A DNA stretch of 32,000 nucleotides, taken from NCBI GenBank assembly GCA_016432445.1, contig CP066689.1, forward strand, positions 870,001 to 902,000, written 5' to 3'. The notes beneath the pieces are model-generated. The model did no database searches. It was not told the DNA's origin and saw nothing but the letters and a program-made list of their open reading frames with translations. This DNA is from Candidatus Saccharimonadota bacterium. Its GTDB lineage: Bacteria; Patescibacteriota; Microgenomatia; UBA1406; GWC2-37-13. Position numbers and translations under genes: made by a program. Below are positions 7,975 through 24,709 of the stretch, one piece after another. The number at the start of each line of letters is the position of its first letter. Position 1 is the stretch's first letter.

Positions 7975-9390
7975 CTATTTGGAGATTTTATAAATAGTAA
8001 TCTTATCAGTTGAATAAATTTTGTTATCTATAAATTTTTCTTTACCAAATTCCTTTGCCTCCCAGCTGTCAAGATTATTAATATTAAAGTTTGGAATTTC
8101 AGAAAAAATATATAGAACTTGTGATTTTTTATACTCAAACTCTAAATTAGGAATAAATCCAGCTTTCCTTAAAAAAAAACGATACTCAAATCCATTAGGT
8201 GATAGTAAATCCGGATTAGTGATCTGAATTACATTAAAAGAGTCCTCTTTTTTGATAATATTGTTTTGAATCAGCGCTTGAGCCGCTTTTTCATAAGTTT
8301 GAACTGATCTCCATGTAGGCTGGTAATAAGATTTAGGGAAATAAATAATCTCAAACAGCAATATAGGTATAAGCACTAAAGTTAACTTACTTTTTATCAA
8401 AACAAAAATAAAAACAAAAAAAATAAAAAAAGTCACTGAAAAAAGATAATGGCTAATAAACTGATACCTTAAAGTTAAAACTAAAAGAAGTAAACTTAAT
8501 AGTGAACAAATTACCAGTATCCTTTCTTTCTTCATGTTCTTTTTGATTAAAACAATCGCGCTTCCTAACAATATCATTAACAACGGATTAATAAGTATTA
8601 ATTCTTTTATCTGTGAAGATAGAAAAAAAATATTATCTATAATGTTTTTCTTACCAGTTAAACCTCCAGGAATATTCTTATTGTTAACCCAATATAAATA
8701 AGATTTATCAATGAAAGTATTTTTAAGCATTATAAAGTTATGTTTTATTTCAAAAAGAATAAAATAAGAAAAAGGAGCAAACAAACCGATAAAAAAGTAA
8801 ACAATAATTCTTTTATGTTTTAAAAGATAAAAAATAAACAAAGTAACAAATGGAACAATGAGAAGATTAACCAGATGAAAAGTAGCTATAATACCAAAAC
8901 CTATACCTATGAAAAATAGCTGTTTTTTTGTCTTTATCTCTGTGAAAAAAATATATGTTAAAAGAATCATCAGAAAGGGAAGATACGAAAAGGCATTACT
9001 TGGGTTTCTTGAAGCAGAAAGATAAAAGGGAAGGAACACAAATACTAGTGAAACTAAAACTGATTTTCGTAAAGATAAAATTGCGCTTATTTTTTTAAAT
9101 AAATAGCCTATGGCTGCTGCAAACAGGAAAGCATTAAAGTATAGAAGGGCATTAATATTTAAATTAGTAATATACAATATTGGGGTAAAAAGGTAGTAAT
9201 AAAATGGCCCTGAATAGATACCGCCAAAAGTCAGCTTTGGACCAATTAAAGTAATTTTTCCCTGGGTAATTTTTAAAATATCATAAAGATCCCGGGCAAA
9301 ATCAGGATTAAATACAAAAGAGGAGGGGAGTTTGTAGGAGAAAATCAGAAATGAAATAATAATAACCCCCGCTCCTACAATAAATCTCAT
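7975..9390 (-). CDS. Polytopic membrane protein, probable GT-C-type glycosyltransferase
   Basis: 471 aa with many TM segments followed by a soluble C-terminal ~110 aa. Located in the glycosylation cluster. Confidence 0.45.
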   Translation of the reverse strand: MRFIVGAGVIIISFLIFSYKLPSSFVFNPDFARDLYDILKITQGKITLIGPKLTFGGIYSGPFYYYLFTPILYITNLNINALLYFNAFLFAAAIGYLFKKISAILSLRKSVLVSLVFVFLPFYLSASRNPSNAFSYLPFLMILLTYIFFTEIKTKKQLFFIGIGFGIIATFHLVNLLIVPFVTLFIFYLLKHKRIIVYFFIGLFAPFSYFILFEIKHNFIMLKNTFIDKSYLYWVNNKNIPGGLTGKKNIIDNIFFLSSQIKELILINPLLMILLGSAIVLIKKNMKKERILVICSLLSLLLLVLTLRYQFISHYLFSVTFFIFFVFIFVLIKSKLTLVLIPILLFEIIYFPKSYYQPTWRSVQTYEKAAQALIQNNIIKKEDSFNVIQITNPDLLSPNGFEYRFFLRKAGFIPNLEFEYKKSQVLYIFSEIPNFNINNLDSWEAKEFGKEKFIDNKIYSTDKITIYKISK

Positions 9391-9560: not shown

Positions 9561-9734
9561 CTACTTAAGTTTTTCGAAATATTCTTCCTTAAAAAGTAAT
9601 TTGAATGGTGCTCGATATTTAGTTGATTTTGACCTACCTGAGTTATGTTGTTCAAATCGTCTTTCAAAATTATCAGTATAACCCACATAGGTTTTTTTGT
9701 CCTTCAGACTTTGGAGGACATAAACGATAAACAT
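9561..9734 (-). pseudogene. GIY-YIG nuclease minigene, C-terminally truncated (57 codons, below the ORF-track cutoff)
   Basis: Translates to MFIVYVLQSLKDKKTYVGYTDNFERRFEQHNSGRSKSTKYRAPFKLLFKEEYFEKLK*. The VYVLQSLKDK stretch matches the 19279 copy. It stops before the conserved C-terminal helix region. Confidence 0.6.
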
Positions 9735-9782: not shown

Positions 9783-9806
9783 TCTTTTTTGTGAAACAAA
9801 AAAGAG
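9782..9806 (-). other. Perfect 11-bp A/T hairpin abutting the tRNA-Gly 3' end
   Basis: CTCTTTTTTGT-ttc-ACAAAAAAGAG. No U-tract follows it, so it is not a canonical terminator. Confidence 0.3.
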
Positions 9807-9875
9807 CGGGATAGGGGAATCGGACCCCTGCCGAAAGATTGGAAATCTTCCGTTCTACCATTAAACTAATCCCGC
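9805..9875 (-). tRNA. tRNA-Gly (anticodon UCC)
   Basis: Manual cloverleaf: acceptor GCGGGAT/ATCCCGC, D stem GTTT/GAAC, anticodon stem GAAGA/TCTTT with loop TTTCCAA, T arm AGGGG-TCCGATT-CCCCT, discriminator T. No encoded CCA. Confidence 0.9.
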
Positions 9876-10129
9876 AGACTGTTCACTAATCTTCTTTTTA
9901 AATAACCTCTCCCAAAACCTGTTTTTAATTGTTTCTCTCTTATCAGTGCATCTGTTTTATTTAAACAGGCTTCGTAATAGACTAAATTAATTTCCGAAAA
10001 CTTTTTAGTTGTTTTAACTTCTTTATTAAGATGTTCTTTATATCTGTTTTTTAAATCTTTACATGAACCTATATAAAATTCATTATTTATCTGTTCATAC
10101 TTACAAAGCAAAACGTACACATAAAACAT
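9866..10129 (-). CDS. Single-domain GIY-YIG nuclease (87 aa)
   Basis: MFYVYVL...FYIGSCKDLKNRYKEH...YYE...REKQLK matches the GIY-(10-11)-YIG, R and E motifs. The last codons CTG CGG GAT TAG are nt -1 to +10 of tRNA-Gly. Confidence 0.8.
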   Translation of the reverse strand: MFYVYVLLCKYEQINNEFYIGSCKDLKNRYKEHLNKEVKTTKKFSEINLVYYEACLNKTDALIREKQLKTGFGRGYLKRRLVNSLRD

Positions 10130-13069: not shown

Positions 13070-13969
13070 TCAACGGCTTTGTCTTTTATTTAAGTATACG
13101 ATCAATTCGCCAATAAATCCTGTAACAATAATCTGTACTCCGACTATTACTAATAGTAAACCTAAAAAAAGTATCGGGCGGCGGTATAAAAGTTCTTGAA
13201 AATAAATTCTTTCAATCCCAAGATAAATAAGAATTAAACTTCCTAATGCAAAAATTGATACTCCAACCGTACCAAAAAAATGCAAAGGTTTCTCAACATA
13301 TTTGATCAGAAAGAAATAGGAGATTAAGTCAAAAAAACCAAAAAGCATTCGCCAAAACCCATATTTGGAAACCCCGTACTGTCTGGCATGATGATCTACT
13401 TCAACCTCGGTTATCTTAAAACCTTCATTTTTAGCAAGGATTGGTAAAATTCTATAATTATCACCGTATAAACGGACATTTTCTAATACCTCACGACGCA
13501 TAACTTTAAAACCGCAGTTGATATCATGAAGATCAACATTAAATAACCGCGCAATAAGTTTATTGTAAATCTTTGAAGGGAATGTTTTATCTACTCCGTC
13601 ATTTCTTTTTTTCCGGTAACCATTAACTAAATCATATCCTTCATTTATTTTATGAATAAATTTTGGAATGTCCTGAGGATCATCCTGTAAATCCGCATCC
13701 ATAAAAACTATAATCTCACCCTTTGATTCGAAAAAACCAGTCTCTAAGGCTTTTCCTTTGCCATAATTTTTTCTTAATACTAAGATCTTTGATTTACTGT
13801 CTTTTTCAATCGTCTTTTCAAGCTGAGCCTTACCTAAATCAGTTGATCCGTCATCGACAAAAATAATCTCATACTCAATTTTGAGTTTATTAATCTCGTC
13901 TTTTAATTTATGAAATAATATCGGCAAATTTTGCTCCTCGTTGTGAAAGGGAATAATTATTGAGATCAT
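13070..13969 (-). CDS. Polyprenol-phosphate glycosyltransferase, GT2 (DPM1/GtrB/ArnC-like) with two C-terminal TM helices
   Basis: ISIIIPFHNEE, IFVDDGSTD, YGKGKA, FMDADLQDDP and GYRKKR motifs, plus a hydrophobic C-terminus. Confidence 0.8.
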   Translation of the reverse strand: MISIIIPFHNEEQNLPILFHKLKDEINKLKIEYEIIFVDDGSTDLGKAQLEKTIEKDSKSKILVLRKNYGKGKALETGFFESKGEIIVFMDADLQDDPQDIPKFIHKINEGYDLVNGYRKKRNDGVDKTFPSKIYNKLIARLFNVDLHDINCGFKVMRREVLENVRLYGDNYRILPILAKNEGFKITEVEVDHHARQYGVSKYGFWRMLFGFFDLISYFFLIKYVEKPLHFFGTVGVSIFALGSLILIYLGIERIYFQELLYRRPILFLGLLLVIVGVQIIVTGFIGELIVYLNKRQSR

Positions 13970-13980
13970 ATTTAAAAAAT

Positions 13981-14013
13981 AAATCTAAATGTCAAAATCC
14001 AAATATCAAATTA
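13981..14013. repeat. Left copy of the 33-bp inverted repeat (27 bp perfect)
   Basis: Plus-strand 13987-14013 aaatgtcaaaatccaaatatcaaatta equals the reverse complement of 15481-15507. The extended match is 32/33. Confidence 0.9.
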
Positions 14014-14050
14014 AGTCCAAAATATAAATGTTAAAAAAGTTTGTCATTTG

Positions 14051-15505
14051 TCATTTAGATTTTGGATTTTTCTTGTAAACTACCAATCCGTCTTGATCAT
14101 GAATTTTTTTGAAACGGTTATCCTTAACTAACTTTTCATATACTGGTATAAGCTCTTCCTTCTCCGGATAATTATATATCTCTGTGGGCCTTATTACAAT
14201 GAAATCCGCTAAAACATATCTGTCAGAAAAAGTATAAAAATATCTTCGTGAAGTAAAATGAGGCGCTAGCTGACCAGTGGATGAAACTTTTATTTTTTCG
14301 TCTTTTAATGAATCTTTCCAATATTCAAGCTGTTTATATTCTTTTTGAGGATATTTAAATGGATGAATCTCCTGGCTCAGGGAATAGGGGAGAGGCCCCT
14401 TAAAATAAGCAAACACTAGGGTTGAAATGATTATAATTGTTATAACTATTATAAAATTTATACGGATAAGTTTTCTTGCTCCATAGATTGCTGCAATAAA
14501 AACAAAAGGCTGAATTACTGCTGTGTAATGAAAGACTATGCTTCTCATAGCCCAGCTCTTGGATAACAGATTGATAGCCCACTCTGGAAGAGAAATTAAT
14601 AATTCTAAAGGAGCAAAAATTGAAATAAATCCTAAAGGTCCCAACATAAATAAGAGATAACGGAAGGTATCAATATGAAATATATATTTTGTTAAGCTTG
14701 AAGGATTGTTAAATATGCCAATCATAACTTTTAATGGAGAATCTCCAAAATCATTGTAATAGCTTAATGCAAAATGATTGCTTCCACGAAAATAAGGAAT
14801 AATTACAAATATAGATAAAATAAACCATAATACGCTTAAGGCAATAACAGTTATTGGAAACCAATGTCTTTTAGTTACTCCCATTCTTAGTAAAGCGTAA
14901 GCTCCGAAAAAGGCCGTAGTTAAACCTACCTGCTCTTTGGAAAGAAGACTTAAGATAAGAAACAAAAGACTTAATTTATAGCGTTTTACTAACCAAAAAT
15001 AAAACATAAAAATAATAAAAGACGTCACTAAAGCTACTGCATGAAACTCATACAGGTTAACCCTTTGAAGCGGGGGATAGAGAAGATAACTTAAGGAAAA
15101 TACCAAAGATAAAAGATCTTTATACTTATTTTTACCAAAAACTATTTGAGCGATTTTATAGATACCAAATGCTCCTAAAGCTATTGCCGCAGTTTGAATA
15201 ACAAGAAGAGTCTCAGGACCGGAATAAATAAAATAAAATGGAGCCAGTAAAGCCAGAAGAATATCATTATGAATAGCCATCCTTTTAATCTGCTCTGAGC
15301 CAAATGGATTAGTCAACTCTAAAAATCTTGACCAATCCCAAGAGGCGATGGCTTGGTAGGTGTTATAAACGGTCTGATGCATTATCCCTAAATCAAAATA
15401 AGAAGCATACAGCGTTTGAAAACGGAGAATTGTAAAGTAGGAAAAATAAACCGCATAAGCTCCTATAAAAAACCACAAAATAATTTGATATTTGGATTTT
15501 GACAT
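14051..15505 (-). CDS. DUF2079-like polytopic membrane protein (possible GT-C-type enzyme)
   Basis: 484 aa. The YFDLGIMHQ motif after TM1 resembles the DUF2079 FDLGIFDQ signature recalled from memory. Many TM segments plus a soluble C-terminus. Confidence 0.5.
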   Translation of the reverse strand: MSKSKYQIILWFFIGAYAVYFSYFTILRFQTLYASYFDLGIMHQTVYNTYQAIASWDWSRFLELTNPFGSEQIKRMAIHNDILLALLAPFYFIYSGPETLLVIQTAAIALGAFGIYKIAQIVFGKNKYKDLLSLVFSLSYLLYPPLQRVNLYEFHAVALVTSFIIFMFYFWLVKRYKLSLLFLILSLLSKEQVGLTTAFFGAYALLRMGVTKRHWFPITVIALSVLWFILSIFVIIPYFRGSNHFALSYYNDFGDSPLKVMIGIFNNPSSLTKYIFHIDTFRYLLFMLGPLGFISIFAPLELLISLPEWAINLLSKSWAMRSIVFHYTAVIQPFVFIAAIYGARKLIRINFIIVITIIIISTLVFAYFKGPLPYSLSQEIHPFKYPQKEYKQLEYWKDSLKDEKIKVSSTGQLAPHFTSRRYFYTFSDRYVLADFIVIRPTEIYNYPEKEELIPVYEKLVKDNRFKKIHDQDGLVVYKKNPKSK

Positions 15506-15513
15506 TTGGATTT
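15481..15513. repeat. Right copy of the 33-bp inverted repeat, containing the start codon and first 8 codons of the 14051-15505 gene
   Basis: See 13981-14013. Confidence 0.9.
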
Positions 15514-15516
15514 TAA

Positions 15517-17718
15517 TTATTTATTTCCTGAATGAAACTTATCATGTATCTCTTTTAATCTAATATTAGTCACATGAGTATAAATTTGTGTCGTTGAGAT
15601 ATTTTTATGTCCCAGCATTTCTTGAACCGAACGCAGGTCAGCACCGTGAGTCAGCAAATCAGTAGCGTACGAATTGTGACTCAAGATACCATTAGTTATC
15701 AAATTATGATTCTTCTCTACAAAAAAATCATAAACAGTATGTTGGGATGATCCTAACTTTTTCTTAGTTTTTACTTTTAACCATTTGATATTGTTGGCAT
15801 TAGCCAGAAGATAATAAGCTTTATATTCCTTATCTGAAATAAGATTGAGTTGCCTGAACCCTTTAATAAGGCTCATAAAAGTGTCTTTTTGAGGTAAAAT
15901 TTTTGCGACATAACGGGAAACATGCTTAATGCCGAATTTTCTTTCGAAAATAGGACAATATTGAACTTTATTTTCTTTTGCTTTGGTAATGCATTTTTGA
16001 ATTATATCCTGAAATGGTAATTTCTCTTCAAAACGGGTTTCTTTTAAACTAAAATCATTAACTTTCATTGTCGGGATATGATTGATAAAATTATCAATAC
16101 TTTGTTTATCAATAATCACCAATCCATAAATATTACCCGTGAAGGATTTTCCATTATGAGGCAGGATTACTCTTCGAGTCCTACCCTCTAAATGAGCATC
16201 TATTCCGAAATAAAGGAATAACATCTGGATTTGTTCAAGAAGGATTTTTGAGGAGGAAAATAATCGGGGAGAAGTAGTTAGCCCTTCAGCATCATAAAAA
16301 CCGGCAATAAAATTGGTAATTTCTTCGCCTGTTGCGGAAAAAAGCTTTTGAGGAACTGTTTTTTTATTTGATAGTTCAATCATCCCGAGATCCTCGAAAA
16401 AACGATTTAGCTCTGTATTATAAAAATATAATTGATACGAATTACTGTTCTCGTTTTTCTTAATATGAGACTTTATCTTTAATGTTTTCTCGATTAATTG
16501 CTGGTAAAACTCTAAATAATCTAAATTCTTATCATAGATTCTGATTACTCTTCCGGATAAATTAACAATGCCATCCCCCAGGACATAACCAATAATCCGC
16601 CATAACGGAGGATTTAATATTTTTTTGCCTTGGTGAAATATTTTTTTAACGGCAACTATATAATCGCTAACTTTAAGATCCTTAGCTTTTTTTTCAACAA
16701 TACTGTCTTTTGAAAAAACAAATATCCTATGCTCGCCGGAACATTTCAATTCATAACCATCGGCTTTTATCTCATACAGGTATGTATTATGTTGACTTTT
16801 TTGGATGACTTTATCTTTTTCCACCTTAAGAGATTTTGTATTGAAAGAATAAATATCTTTGCGCGCAGAATAAAATAATTCTCTGGCGGTGAGGATAGAA
16901 TCATTAACGGCGATTAATGTTTGCGGATGTAAACAATGCCTTAATACGTGAGGACCGATACGGAATAAGATACCGGCTTTTTTTCTATACTTATCAATAG
17001 TTCTTTCAATTGAACGCACGGATAATCTAAGCTTATTTTCGGTTAAACCTTCCTCAGGACGCGGTCCGGAGTATCTGATAAACAACGGCTTATAAGGATC
17101 ATCTCTTTTTTGAAGATACATTGAAAGCCAATCAGTGGCTTTTTTGGATAAAAATACCACCCTGGCTTTGCCTCCTTTTCCAATCACTCCAAACTCGCCT
17201 GAGTCCAAATTAATCTGGTCACGGTTAAGACCGGCAAGCTCTGACACACGGAGTCCGGTTGAGAAGAGTACCTCAAGCAAAGCTCTGTCTCTTAAGCCAA
17301 TTATTTCTGAGTAATCAACGGCGGCAAATAATTTTTCTAAATCTTCAGGAGATAAAAACTTAATTGACCGGTCACTCTGTTTTCCCAGTTCGATAACTTC
17401 AGGCGCAATTACTTTAACTTTTTGCTTTATTAAAAACCTAAAAAAAGAACGGAGGGCCACTAAAAAATAATTTTGAGTTTGCCTTTTTAAATCACCCTTG
17501 TGAGGATTTTTATATTGGTGGGAAAGATAAAGACGGAAGTTTCTTATGATATTGTCATCAATCTTTTCAACCTCAAAATCTTCAAGCTTCATTGTGTCCA
17601 ATAGCCAAGTTTGAAAAAAATTAAGGTAGTAACCATACATGCGGACCGTTTTTACTGAAAGATTTCGATCAAGCTCGCAGTATTCCAAAAAACGTAAAAC
17701 CGCCTCTTTTATCCCCAT
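15517..17718 (-). CDS. XerC/XerD-type tyrosine recombinase interrupted by an intein (312-aa extein + 421-aa intein)
   Basis: N-terminal SAM-like domain. Box [13 protein letters not shown]. Box II HVLRH|...|SYATDLL split by the insert. [14 protein letters not shown] carries the catalytic Tyr. Confidence 0.85.
15673..16935 (-). mobile_element. Intein with LAGLIDADG homing-endonuclease domain (Cys262-Asn682 of the recombinase ORF)
   Basis: It starts [10 protein letters not shown] (block A). SGEHRIFV is block-B-like. LAGLIDADG motifs [11 protein letters not shown] and [10 protein letters not shown]. It ends [21 protein letters not shown], followed by Ser as the +1 residue. Confidence 0.85.
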
Positions 17719-17724
17719 GAACCA

Positions 17725-17730
17725 ATATTA
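17725..17730 (-). promoter_or_regulatory. -10 hexamer TAATAT, 6 nt upstream of the recombinase ATG
   Basis: The minus strand reads ttTAATATtggttcATG. Confidence 0.3.
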
Positions 17731-17760
17731 AACGACATCTAGCTTAAAATCAAAAGGATT

Positions 17761-18363
17761 TTATTTTGCAATAAATGCATTCTGAGGAAGTGTTATCCCA
17801 GATTCAACTCGATGAATTGTATGAGCTAACAATCTATGTACACCATCAATAATATGAAGATGCCCATCTGGTCTTCTACCAAAAGGTCTTGGCGTTAATA
17901 TTAATGGGGGTAGCATCGATCCTTTTCTGTATTCTTCAAGAATTTCAAGCATGTCTTTTTCTTTCCAAGGTTTTACATCAAAAAAACAGGTTAAATATTT
18001 GGCAGCTACACTTTCAAGCGTACGATCACGCCCTTTGTCAGTTAATATTGCAGAAATGTGTTTAGGATCCGGTTCATAATACCATTGAATACTATTCAAG
18101 TCAGAAAGAGTAAGAGCAGTTGATACAAAAACTTTATGATATCTGATTGCAGCTATAGCTGTTGAATTAGGATTAACACCTCTTTGATTTTCAAGATTTG
18201 TATAAAATACTTCTATATCTGCAGATGAACGAGTTTTTCCTTCGGAAGGCAATGAGCGAAAATAAGCTTCTCTCAACCTTTGACTAGGTAAATAACGGCC
18301 TACTGCATCTAAGAAATGTCTGTTTGGAATACTACGCGCAAATTTAGCTGAAGTTATTTCCAT
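17761..18363 (-). CDS. Hypothetical protein with C-terminal ParB/Srx-like nuclease motif
   Basis: LPPLILTPRPF...HLHIIDGVHRLLAH fits the ParB-like PPI..(n)..iDGhHR signature. The start was moved to the ATG at 18363 (MEITSAK..) because 18366-18446 is tRNA-Leu. Confidence 0.55.
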   Translation of the reverse strand: MEITSAKFARSIPNRHFLDAVGRYLPSQRLREAYFRSLPSEGKTRSSADIEVFYTNLENQRGVNPNSTAIAAIRYHKVFVSTALTLSDLNSIQWYYEPDPKHISAILTDKGRDRTLESVAAKYLTCFFDVKPWKEKDMLEILEEYRKGSMLPPLILTPRPFGRRPDGHLHIIDGVHRLLAHTIHRVESGITLPQNAFIAK

Positions 18364-18365
18364 TG

Positions 18366-18446
18366 TGCCAGAGGAGGGAGTTGAACCCTCACGCCTTACG
18401 GCACAGGATCCTAAATCCTGCGTGTATGCCATTTCACCACTCTGGC
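18366..18446 (-). tRNA. tRNA-Leu (anticodon UAG), class II with long variable arm
   Basis: Manual fold: acceptor GCCAGAG/CTCTGGC, anticodon stem CAGGA/TCCTG with loop TTTAGGA, variable arm TGCCGTAAGGCGT, T arm GAGGG-TTCAACT-CCCTC, discriminator A. Confidence 0.9.
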
Positions 18447-18463
18447 TTGTGAAGATCATTAAA

Positions 18464-19126
18464 TTATACCATTCTAGACCGTTTTTCTCTAAGCCAGTGG
18501 GCTATGGTGTTACCGAAGATAAATCCACCAATATGAGCAAACCAAGCAATTCCGCCTAATGAGAAAGTTTCCCTGGATAGTGAGCCAATAGTACTAAATA
18601 TCTGAGCAATAAACCAGTACCCTAAAACAAACCAAGCCGGAAGATCAACGATGGTCAAAAAAACGAGAATAACAATTAATGTTTTTACTTTTGAGTATCT
18701 GAATAATATGAAATAGGCTCCAGCCACAGCTGATATAGCACCAGATGCGCCAATCATAGGTATAGGACTAGTAGTGGCAGCAGCATACTGGCTTAAAGCG
18801 GCAATAAGACCGCCTCCTAGATAAAAAAGAATATAACGGAAATGGCCAAGCTTATCCTCAATATTATCTCCAAAAACGTGAAGAAAGATCATGTTGGAAA
18901 TAATGTGAAGAAATCCTCCGTGAATGAACAAAGAGGTAAAGATTGTAAAGTAAGACTCAACAACGGTCAGGTTAAAATTACCAGGTATAAAGGCAAAACT
19001 CCTTATAAAATCTTCAGGATCAGGTAAAAGCAGTTCATAAATAAATATAACGATATTTAACAAAATAAGCAGATAATTTATTACCGGAAAATGCTTCCGG
19101 GGTGTTGAGTCAAATAATGGGAACAT
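18464..19126 (-). CDS. Rhomboid-family intramembrane serine protease
   Basis: GASGAISAVAGAY (GxSG catalytic Ser), HIGGFIFG (catalytic His helix), and HxxxN-like FIHGGFLHIISNM. Confidence 0.85.
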   Translation of the reverse strand: MFPLFDSTPRKHFPVINYLLILLNIVIFIYELLLPDPEDFIRSFAFIPGNFNLTVVESYFTIFTSLFIHGGFLHIISNMIFLHVFGDNIEDKLGHFRYILFYLGGGLIAALSQYAAATTSPIPMIGASGAISAVAGAYFILFRYSKVKTLIVILVFLTIVDLPAWFVLGYWFIAQIFSTIGSLSRETFSLGGIAWFAHIGGFIFGNTIAHWLREKRSRMV

Positions 19127-19146: not shown

Positions 19147-19189
19147 TAGGTTGTAAGAACAGTGTAAGAAAAGGCTAAAGATTTCATCA

Positions 19190-19206
19190 GGAGGGGTCGC
19201 ATAGTG
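19190..19206 (+). repeat. Exact 17-nt duplicate of tRNA-Ser nt 1-17 (GGAGGGGTCGCATAGTG)
   Basis: Identical to 19539-19555. The match ends inside the D-loop. Confidence 0.9.
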
Positions 19207-19278: not shown

Positions 19279-19539
19279 ATGTTCTATGTATACGTATTAC
19301 AAAGTTTGAAAGATAAAAGATTCTATATAGGTTTTAGTGCGGATTTAAAAAAAAGAGTTAAAGATCATAACGAAGGTAGAGTTGTAAGCACAAAGAATAG
19401 AAGGCCATTAGATTTAATCTATTATGAAGCTTATAAGTTTGAACAACAGGCACGTAAACAGGAATTATTTTATAAAACAGGACAAGGAAGACGAGTCTTG
19501 AAAACACGTCTTACAGGTAATGAAATACTAGGAAAATAG
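19279..19539 (+). CDS. Single-domain GIY-YIG nuclease (86 aa)
   Basis: MFYVYVLQSLKDKRFYIGFSADLKKRVKDHN...YYEAY...Q..RKQE matches the GIY-YIG motifs. The final G of the TAG stop codon is nt 1 of tRNA-Ser. Confidence 0.8.
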   Translation: MFYVYVLQSLKDKRFYIGFSADLKKRVKDHNEGRVVSTKNRRPLDLIYYEAYKFEQQARKQELFYKTGQGRRVLKTRLTGNEILGK

Positions 19540-19625
19540 GAGGGGTCGCATAGTGGACTAGTGCGTACGCCTGGAAAGCGTATGTGGTCGCAAGACTACC
19601 GCGGGTTCGAATCCCGCCCTCTCCG
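19539..19625 (+). tRNA. tRNA-Ser (anticodon GGA), class II
   Basis: Manual fold: acceptor GGAGGGG/CCTCTCC (one G-U pair), anticodon stem TACGC/GCGTA with loop CTGGAAA, variable arm GTGGTC-gcaa-GACTAC, T arm GCGGG-TTCGAAT-CCCGC, discriminator G. Confidence 0.9.
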
Positions 19626-19632
19626 CACTTTT

Positions 19633-24646: not shown

Positions 24647-24709
24647 ATCCAAATGTCAAAACTCAAATGTCAAATATTTTTTGTCATTTGAAATTTGGAT
24701 TTTGGATTT
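24645..24709. terminator. Large imperfect palindrome between convergent genes (probable bidirectional terminator, REP-like family)
   Basis: aaatccaaa...tcaaatgtcaa-(7 nt: atatttt)-ttgtcatttga...tttggattt. The outer 9 bp are perfect and the inner stem matches 10/11. Confidence 0.45.

Follow-up and report, generated by a model that had tools for sequence, protein, structure and literature searches.

A predicted LAGLIDADG homing intein in box II of a Xer-like tyrosine recombinase, at a site shared by Patescibacteria and DPANN archaea

How could a functional Xer-type recombinase be made from a gene in which catalytic box II is interrupted by 421 codons? The question is raised by a 733-amino acid (aa) open reading frame (ORF) on the minus strand of a genome of the Patescibacteriota (Candidatus Saccharimonadota bacterium, assembly GCA_016432445.1, contig CP066689.1), which we analyzed within a window of 32,000 nucleotides (nt), positions 870,001 to 902,000 of the contig; coordinates below are those of the window. 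A preliminary description had read the ORF as a tyrosine recombinase with a 421-aa intein between His261 and Ser683, and its coordinates, lengths and motifs all proved exact. The window protein is 100% identical to a database entry (P0001) named 'tyrosine-type recombinase/integrase [Candidatus Roizmanbacteria bacterium]'. The parts of the gene, with the evidence that defines each, are as follows.

15517 to 17718, minus strand: precursor gene, Xer-like tyrosine recombinase plus intein, 733 aa (ORF list; stop codon 15517-15519)
16936 to 17718, minus strand: N-extein, residues 1-261 (Pfam Phage_int_SAM_1; Phage_integrase profile positions 1-135; alignment with XerD, 1a0p)
15673 to 16935, minus strand: predicted intein, residues 262-682, 421 aa, Cys1 to His-Asn, then Ser+1 (hidden Markov models, AlphaFold2 model, Foldseek)
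16624 to 16935, minus strand: N-terminal half of the Hint domain, intein residues 1-104, with block A (Cys1) and block B (modelled beta strands 7-96)
16720-16746, minus strand: block B, K-C-S-G-E-H (His in 120/120 and Ser or Thr in 120/120 homologues)
16066 to 16623, minus strand: LAGLIDADG homing endonuclease, intein residues about 105-290 (Pfam LAGLIDADG_3, model, Foldseek)
16564-16596, minus strand: LAGLIDADG motif 1, IIGYVLGDG, residues 375-385, with Asp382 (Asp in 118/120)
16279-16308, minus strand: LAGLIDADG motif 2, IAGFYDAEG, residues 471-480, with Glu478 (Glu or Asp in 119/120)
15796 to 16065, minus strand: helical region, intein residues about 291-380 (modelled helices 309-378, block-mean pLDDT 72-93)
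15673 to 15795, minus strand: C-terminal half of the Hint domain, intein residues 381-421, with blocks F (VYDF) and G (residue conservation; intein_Cterm match)
15520 to 15672, minus strand: C-extein, residues 683-733, starting SYATDLL, with catalytic His704 and nucleophile Tyr713

A predicted class-1 intein and its recombinase host

As predicted from sequence, 15673 to 16935 is a canonical class-1 intein that shows every defining feature testable at this level. The N-extein ends in ...GPHVLRH before Cys262, the first residue of the intein; the intein ends in ...GILSHN, and SYATDLL follows from Ser683, as had been described. The residue pattern is that of class 1: Cys1, block B S-x-x-H (here S-G-E-H, residues 327-330), block F V-Y-D-F, block G S-H-N and Ser+1. 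Among 120 homologues bearing the intein, Cys1, Asp664-Phe665 of block F, His681, Asn682 and Ser683 are each conserved in 120/120, as is the His of block B, whose first position is Ser in 87 and Thr in 33. The consensus of the site in all 120 is H-x-[LMI]-R-H/C...S-H-N/S (slashes mark splice junctions), and the splicing residues remain invariant although identity among these homologues falls to about 37%. Profile hidden Markov models for both components score above their curated cutoffs: Pfam Intein_splicing at 83.8 bits (cutoff 35.8, E 1.4e-23), Pfam LAGLIDADG_3 at 64.4 bits in two stretches (cutoff 22.5, E 1.2e-17), NCBIfam intein_Nterm at 28.6 (cutoff 24.5) and intein_Cterm at 28.9 (cutoff 15.6). 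Both LAGLIDADG motifs claimed earlier are present. The GC content of the intein (31.5%, vs. 38.1% in the N-extein) is weakly suggestive of a foreign origin.

The flanks of the insert form one recombinase. Pfam Phage_integrase matches the precursor in two stretches, which become a single match (profile positions 1-169 of 172, 145.8 bits) after deletion of the 421 aa, and the conceptually spliced product is 312 aa long. The preliminary description had proposed a survey for intein-less alleles, and at least 120 intein-free protein clusters match the spliced extein at 76-85% identity and 97-100% coverage (100% for nearly all). These are about 303-329 aa long (nearly all 310-329 aa, the majority exactly 312 aa), and several are labelled Roizmanbacteria. 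They include an orthologue in a syntenic locus (L004) that is colinear codon for codon, with 81% aa and 72% nucleotide identity, and in which more than 40 residues across the junction are identical to the spliced extein. Alignment with Escherichia coli XerD (1a0p) is likewise contiguous and gapless over the junction (PHVLRH/SYATDLL vs. PHVLRH/AFATHLL). The insertion therefore lies one residue past the second catalytic arginine (H-x-x-R-H/S), which is Arg247 in XerD. The catalytic R-K-H-R-H-Y set is present in order as Arg157, Lys184, His257, Arg260, His704 and Tyr713, in agreement with the XerD motifs. In the precursor it is split: the N-extein supplies a SAM-like DNA-binding domain and the initial part of the catalytic domain, including four of these residues (and His261 at position -1), the C-extein supplies His704 and Tyr713, and the set is complete only once the protein is spliced. 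Taken together, the profile matches, the colinearity, the XerD alignment, the conservation and the structural model described below agree on a LAGLIDADG intein between the RH and S of box II in a Xer-type recombinase.

As to which Xer this is, the spliced extein reaches none of the NCBIfam equivalog cutoffs, scoring 241.6 for XerD (cutoff 329.6), 238.7 for XerC (335.15) and 205 for XerA_Arch (220). The host is thus Xer-like but outside the XerC, XerD and XerA equivalogs. A 'Cand' Xer-like subgroup has been described for candidate phyla (PMC8138268), and the host probably belongs to it. Chromosome dimer resolution would be the cellular role of such a Xer.

By analogy with characterised inteins, the 733-aa precursor would be inactive as a recombinase, with no active site assembled, since the 421 aa part Arg157, Lys184, His257 and Arg260 from His704 and Tyr713. 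Cys1 would begin an N-S acyl shift at the His261-Cys262 bond with help from the block B Ser-x-x-His, and the N-extein would be handed to Ser683 (+1). Asn682 would then cyclise with the help of His681 and free the intein, and an O-N shift would leave a native peptide bond. Splicing would thereby yield a Xer of 312 aa whose PHVLRHSYATDLL box is contiguous, and the 421-aa endonuclease in free form. The latter would cleave intein-free Xer alleles at the interrupted site, and repair would copy the intein in.

One further cysteine deserves mention. Cys326 (intein residue 65; 16741-16743), just before the block B Ser/Thr, is conserved in 106 of the 120 homologues and could, in principle, form a redox-sensitive disulfide with Cys1.

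Predicted fold and comparison with known inteins

An AlphaFold2 model of the intein, built from a 16-sequence intein alignment, has a mean predicted local distance difference test score (pLDDT) of 91 and a predicted template modelling score (pTM) of 0.90. Its beta strands in residues 7-96 and 383-420 form a split Hint domain in which both termini come together. Residues about 105-290 form two alpha-beta-beta-alpha-beta-beta-alpha halves, as in a pseudo-dimeric endonuclease, and residues about 291-380 are helical. We guess that this helical region is a DNA-recognition add-on; it has the highest ratio of non-synonymous to synonymous substitution rates (dN/dS) among the parts of the intein, 0.23. 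In comparison with the closest relative (P0002/L101), dN/dS is about 0.13 in the endonuclease and about 0.11 in the intein as a whole. The endonuclease has a maintained appearance, with its acidic residues kept in ~99% of the homologues and an intein length of 405-425 aa in all 120, and it seems somewhat more likely than not that it is active now or was until recently.

Foldseek searches of the PDB returned, at probability 1.00, TliVMA (7qss, E 1.8e-23, template modelling (TM) score 0.70), PI-PfuI, PI-PkoII, PhoVMA and PI-SceI, and the endonuclease part matched I-DmoI (TM about 0.65-0.69, normalised to the target) and I-Tsp061I. A sequence-profile search of PDB chains recovered the same solved inteins and also matched the Pho RadA intein. 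The closest likeness is to TliVMA and PhoVMA (7qss, 7qsu, 7qst) and PI-PfuI (1dq3), which share the arrangement of a split Hint domain, a double-motif LAGLIDADG endonuclease and an extra domain, and which gave the best structural matches (E 1.8e-23 and 8.2e-22; TM 0.6-0.7) as well as the best profile matches (E about 4e-15). Their hosts, however, are the V-ATPase A subunit (TliVMA, PhoVMA) and ribonucleotide reductase (PI-PfuI), their insertion sites are others, and identity is 16-19%. PI-SceI, the yeast VMA1 intein and prototype homing intein, shares the class-1 chemistry (Cys1...His-Asn and a +1 nucleophile; match E about 1e-11); its LAGLIDADG endonuclease targets the intein-free allele. It differs in being eukaryotic, in its identity of 9-12%, in its DNA-recognition region and in its host protein.

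Functional parallels are found elsewhere. The hosts of the Mtu RecA and Pho RadA inteins are likewise DNA recombination proteins, interrupted in a conserved functional region and dependent on splicing for their activity, but they are RecA-family strand-exchange ATPases, whereas the present host is a site-specific tyrosine recombinase; moreover, the Pho RadA intein is without an endonuclease, while the Xer intein carries one. Recombinases whose activity depends on protein splicing have been engineered from phiC31 integrase and from Cre/Dre (PMC6868429, PMC3973285). Those are artificial, trans-splicing constructs with DnaE split inteins at chosen positions, in contrast to the Xer intein, which is natural and would be cis-splicing and mobile. 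LAGLIDADG homing endonucleases are abundant in rRNA introns of bacteria of the candidate phyla radiation (CPR) (PMC11270868). They share superfamily and organism group with the endonuclease described here, but are encoded in rRNA insertion sequences and spread at the level of RNA introns, as opposed to a protein-splicing element in a protein-coding gene.

Distribution and mobility across two domains

The identical four-Pfam architecture recurs in at least 120 clusters of proteins about 730 aa long, and the JGI automatic name on some of them is 'site-specific recombinase XerD/intein/homing endonuclease'. When the intein alone was compared with 1.84 billion representatives at 50% identity, 27 relatives were found at E<=1e-30; beyond these, scores were far weaker and the inteins lay in hosts that are evidently other proteins and reach greater lengths, up to about 2400 aa. 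A scan of one genome per GTDB species gave 83 confirmed loci, of which 80 were kept, and in about 76 of the 80 the intein occupies the identical site. The bacterial hosts are Xer proteins of Microgenomates (Roizman-, Woese- and Gottesmanbacteria), Saccharibacteria, Parcubacteria lineages, Kazan and Peregrinibacteria. Several records bear titles such as 'uncultured Gammaproteobacteria' that look like placeholder taxonomy, given the CPR-type exteins. The search with the extein that gave the intein-free clusters returned no intein-bearing proteins, not even the 100% identical P0001, so that a ratio of intein-bearing to intein-free proteins is not derivable from it.

There are departures from the common pattern. 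In six species-representative loci (L027, L035, L044, L052, L057, L076) the +1 residue is Cys (SHN/CFATDLLS), and the spliced box II would read RH-C-FATDLL. In two others (L041, L069) the same intein lies at the same H-x-x-R-H/S position of shorter, integrase-like, non-Xer tyrosine recombinases (SFAINWIK, SFAIHCIK), which suggests occasional jumps into paralogues (ectopic homing). In a Saccharibacteria-labelled contig (L025) the intein is interrupted close to its C-terminus by an in-frame stop or a frameshift, which may reflect decay of this copy or an error of sequencing.

Among close relatives, presence of the intein is scattered. For every one of the 10 intein-bearing exteins closest to that of the window (75-82% identity), the nearest neighbour is an intein-free allele, and in a neighbour-joining tree of 133 exteins these 10 form 10 separate singleton clades. 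The cycle of splicing and homing set out above would account for this scatter. In comparison with L101, the proportion of synonymous differences (pS) is 0.66 in the intein, lower than the 0.82 (saturated) in the extein. This fits a more recent common ancestor for the intein, although composition may contribute, and together with the lower GC content it hints at an intein younger, in this lineage, than the gene that hosts it.

The family also extends to archaea. Eight loci have archaeal-type exteins (SFATHLLE), and all four that were tested pass the NCBIfam XerA_Arch equivalog cutoff. An Iainarchaeum locus (L066) is genuinely archaeal, since genes for TFE-alpha and the archaeal tRNA Cm56 methyltransferase (Trm56) flank it. 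Pairs of bacterial proteins have a mean identity of 50.8% in the extein and 40.8% in the intein, and the intein is the more similar part in 3% of them. In bacterium-archaeon pairs the means are 31.0% for the extein and 40.5% for the intein, and the intein exceeds the extein in 424 of 424. The archaeal exteins are monophyletic; the archaeal inteins are not, and their common ancestor spans 37 of the 61 tips. The simplest explanation for these patterns is that the intein moved horizontally between CPR bacteria and DPANN archaea, which the near-universal H-x-x-R-H-S-[FY]-A-T target made possible. Homing combined with such transfer would account for an intein that occupies one and the same position in Xer of many Patescibacteria lineages and XerA of DPANN archaea. 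As for a viral carrier, tblastn against 50,697 phage records brought up no more than distant inteins, of 22-24% identity, whose hosts are helicases and terminases, and the best match in IMG/VR, among the matches listed, had 28% identity; a viral carrier is therefore unsupported.

The intein reading, its alternatives and what it means

We put the probability that the insert is a splicing-competent intein at about 0.85. Several points weigh against this account or parts of it. Splicing and DNA cleavage themselves we infer only from the fold and the conservation of residues. Where Thr is the commoner residue, block B has Ser, as do 87 of the 120 homologues. A part in dimer resolution rests on the published 'Cand' subgroup, because the extein falls below the XerC, XerD and XerA cutoffs. 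The trees are neighbour-joining trees on raw identities, and the sequences compared were picked by similarity to the query. The best intein identity between the domains is only about 50%, and the transfers are therefore not recent. Finally, no pair of occupied and empty alleles that would attest to ongoing homing was found within one species.

The alternative that survives best is that the intein has been domesticated as a conditional switch, in which a cue (redox, binding of DNA or dif, or temperature) would trigger splicing and gate Xer and dimer resolution post-translationally. An insertion that adjoins the second catalytic arginine must leave the precursor inactive, Cys326 with Cys1 is a possible redox trap, and the intein is full length in all 120 copies. 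The RadA intein responds to single-stranded DNA. Conditional splicing has been documented in the Pho RadA recombinase intein (cited in PMC8987985). The scatter among intein-free close relatives and the discordance between domains are, however, the expected product of a selfish homing element, and an intact endonuclease active site is not expected in a domesticated, vertically inherited regulator. We therefore consider the switch unlikely, and equally doubtful is the more specific proposal that the intein is a post-translational checkpoint on dimer resolution in ultra-small, host-dependent cells, with redox (Cys1/Cys65) or recombination-site binding as the cue. If it were true, retention at one site in CPR and DPANN would mean repeated recruitment of the same switch.

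The surroundings of the gene bear on a second alternative, that this Xer is no housekeeping enzyme but the dedicated invertase of a neighbouring gene, with the intein gating phase variation. On the minus strand the order is tRNA-Leu, a 200-odd-aa protein, the Xer-intein gene, a DUF2079-family membrane protein and a family 2 (GT2) glycosyltransferase, and the DUF2079 gene, which begins 11 nt past the Xer stop codon, is bracketed by a repeat:

13981-14013 and 15481-15513: 33-nt inverted repeat with one mismatch, on either side of the 484-aa DUF2079 membrane-protein gene

The chance expectation for such a repeat is 0, and since both arms carry an ATG and the same 8 codons (MSKSKYQI), the DUF2079 ORF would survive inversion intact in either orientation. 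The preliminary description had raised the possibility that the recombinase drives this segment. That suggestion finds no support in the comparison of loci: the intein-free L004 keeps the same Xer-DUF2079-GT2 order, with overlapping genes, and lacks the repeat, which is therefore no constant companion of this recombinase. In L005, the closest intein locus among the species representatives, there are only AT-rich, low-complexity matches. The recombinase family is conserved across Patescibacteria whatever its neighbours, the arms are, by eye, without an internal dyad of the dif or core-site type, and the opposite orientation is seen in no assembly. A dedicated invertase is thus very improbable, more so than the switch.

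The repeat has some features of its own. A third, weaker copy lies at 14033-14070 and a related motif at 24651-24674; on the minus strand, the left arm forms a hairpin with the third copy, and a T-run comes after it. In three Logan assemblies of the same gene (L001, L002, L003) the contigs stop 31 nt past the Xer stop codon, inside the right arm. Such contig ends alone are no sign of inversion, because a 33-nt repeat would break an assembly graph with an assumed k=31.

Least credible of all is that the 421 aa are retained, or that the gene is inactive and Xer function lies elsewhere: splicing is here deduced from sequence and fold, and the related L025 is interrupted close to the intein C-terminus, but the ORF of the window is intact, every splicing residue is invariant despite divergence to about 37% identity, dN in the extein is far below dS (proportion of non-synonymous differences, pN, 0.15 vs. 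the saturated pS of 0.82), dN/dS in the intein is about 0.11, and the model is a well-formed Hint fold whose termini meet in one domain.

Other features of the window were recorded in passing. A tblastn search of the 32 kb found no second tyrosine recombinase or intein; a weak match at 8465-8602 (E 0.054), within the gene for a 471-aa membrane protein, is spurious. Promoter and terminator scans of 13800-18600 gave the same counts as shuffled sequence, and Rfam, over the whole window, found only three tRNAs. The ORF of 232 aa at 17761-18459 (minus strand), also a gene call of public assemblies, overlaps tRNA-Leu(tag) (18365-18446, minus strand) at its 5' end and probably has its true start at an internal MEITSAKF; its C-terminal IIDGVHRL presumably resembles a ParB/Srx-type motif. 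Elsewhere in the window lies a small gene:

19279-19539: 86-aa GIY-YIG gene, abutting tRNA-Ser(gga) at 19539-19626

An exact 18-nt copy of the 5' end of this tRNA (AGGAGGGGTCGCATAGTG) is found at 19189-19206, 349 nt upstream, with the GIY-YIG gene between the two. The arrangement resembles the insertion of a small GIY-YIG cassette at the tRNA-Ser gene with target duplication. Two GIY-YIG-like ORFs of 57 and 87 aa (9561-9734, 9866-10129), clearly homologous to the gene at 19279, flank tRNA-Gly(tcc) (9804-9875), so that three GIY-YIG minigenes adjoin tRNA genes in 32 kb.

In mechanism and fold the element at 15673 to 16935, read as an intein, is an ordinary LAGLIDADG homing intein; its host and insertion site are new to the literature searched. 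The preliminary description could recall no characterised intein in a Xer or integrase active site. This held for the full-text literature searched (about 8 million papers and preprints; subscription-only papers lay outside it), in which no natural intein in a Xer or other tyrosine recombinase is described and co-mentions of inteins and recombinases concern separate genes or engineered split-intein constructs. At the level of sequences it did not hold, since hundreds of copies are already public and some are labelled automatically by JGI. The top-15 host lists of a 2016 intein survey are without a tyrosine recombinase (PMC4760082). With the present family, natural intein hosts gain the site-specific tyrosine recombinases (Xer, XerA and a few integrase-like paralogues). 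A host of this kind will not surprise specialists; what is noteworthy is the breadth across Patescibacteria and the allele shared with XerA of DPANN archaea.

The site, one residue from the catalytic arginine, is in line with the known tendency of inteins to settle in conserved active-site motifs of enzymes that handle DNA. Annotation pipelines call the 730-aa proteins plain 'tyrosine-type recombinase/integrase', and the proteins will escape Xer surveys with a length filter. The Xer intein could serve as a natural template for splicing-dependent recombinase tools. For bacterial and archaeal clamp-loader inteins, the 2016 survey states that insertion points do not overlap and judges the elements independently acquired and not orthologous (PMC4760082). 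The Xer intein, in contrast, is shared between bacteria and archaea. An allele and site in common, with inteins closer to one another than their hosts are, point to past exchange of DNA between CPR bacteria and DPANN archaea, both of them radiations of ultra-small symbionts.

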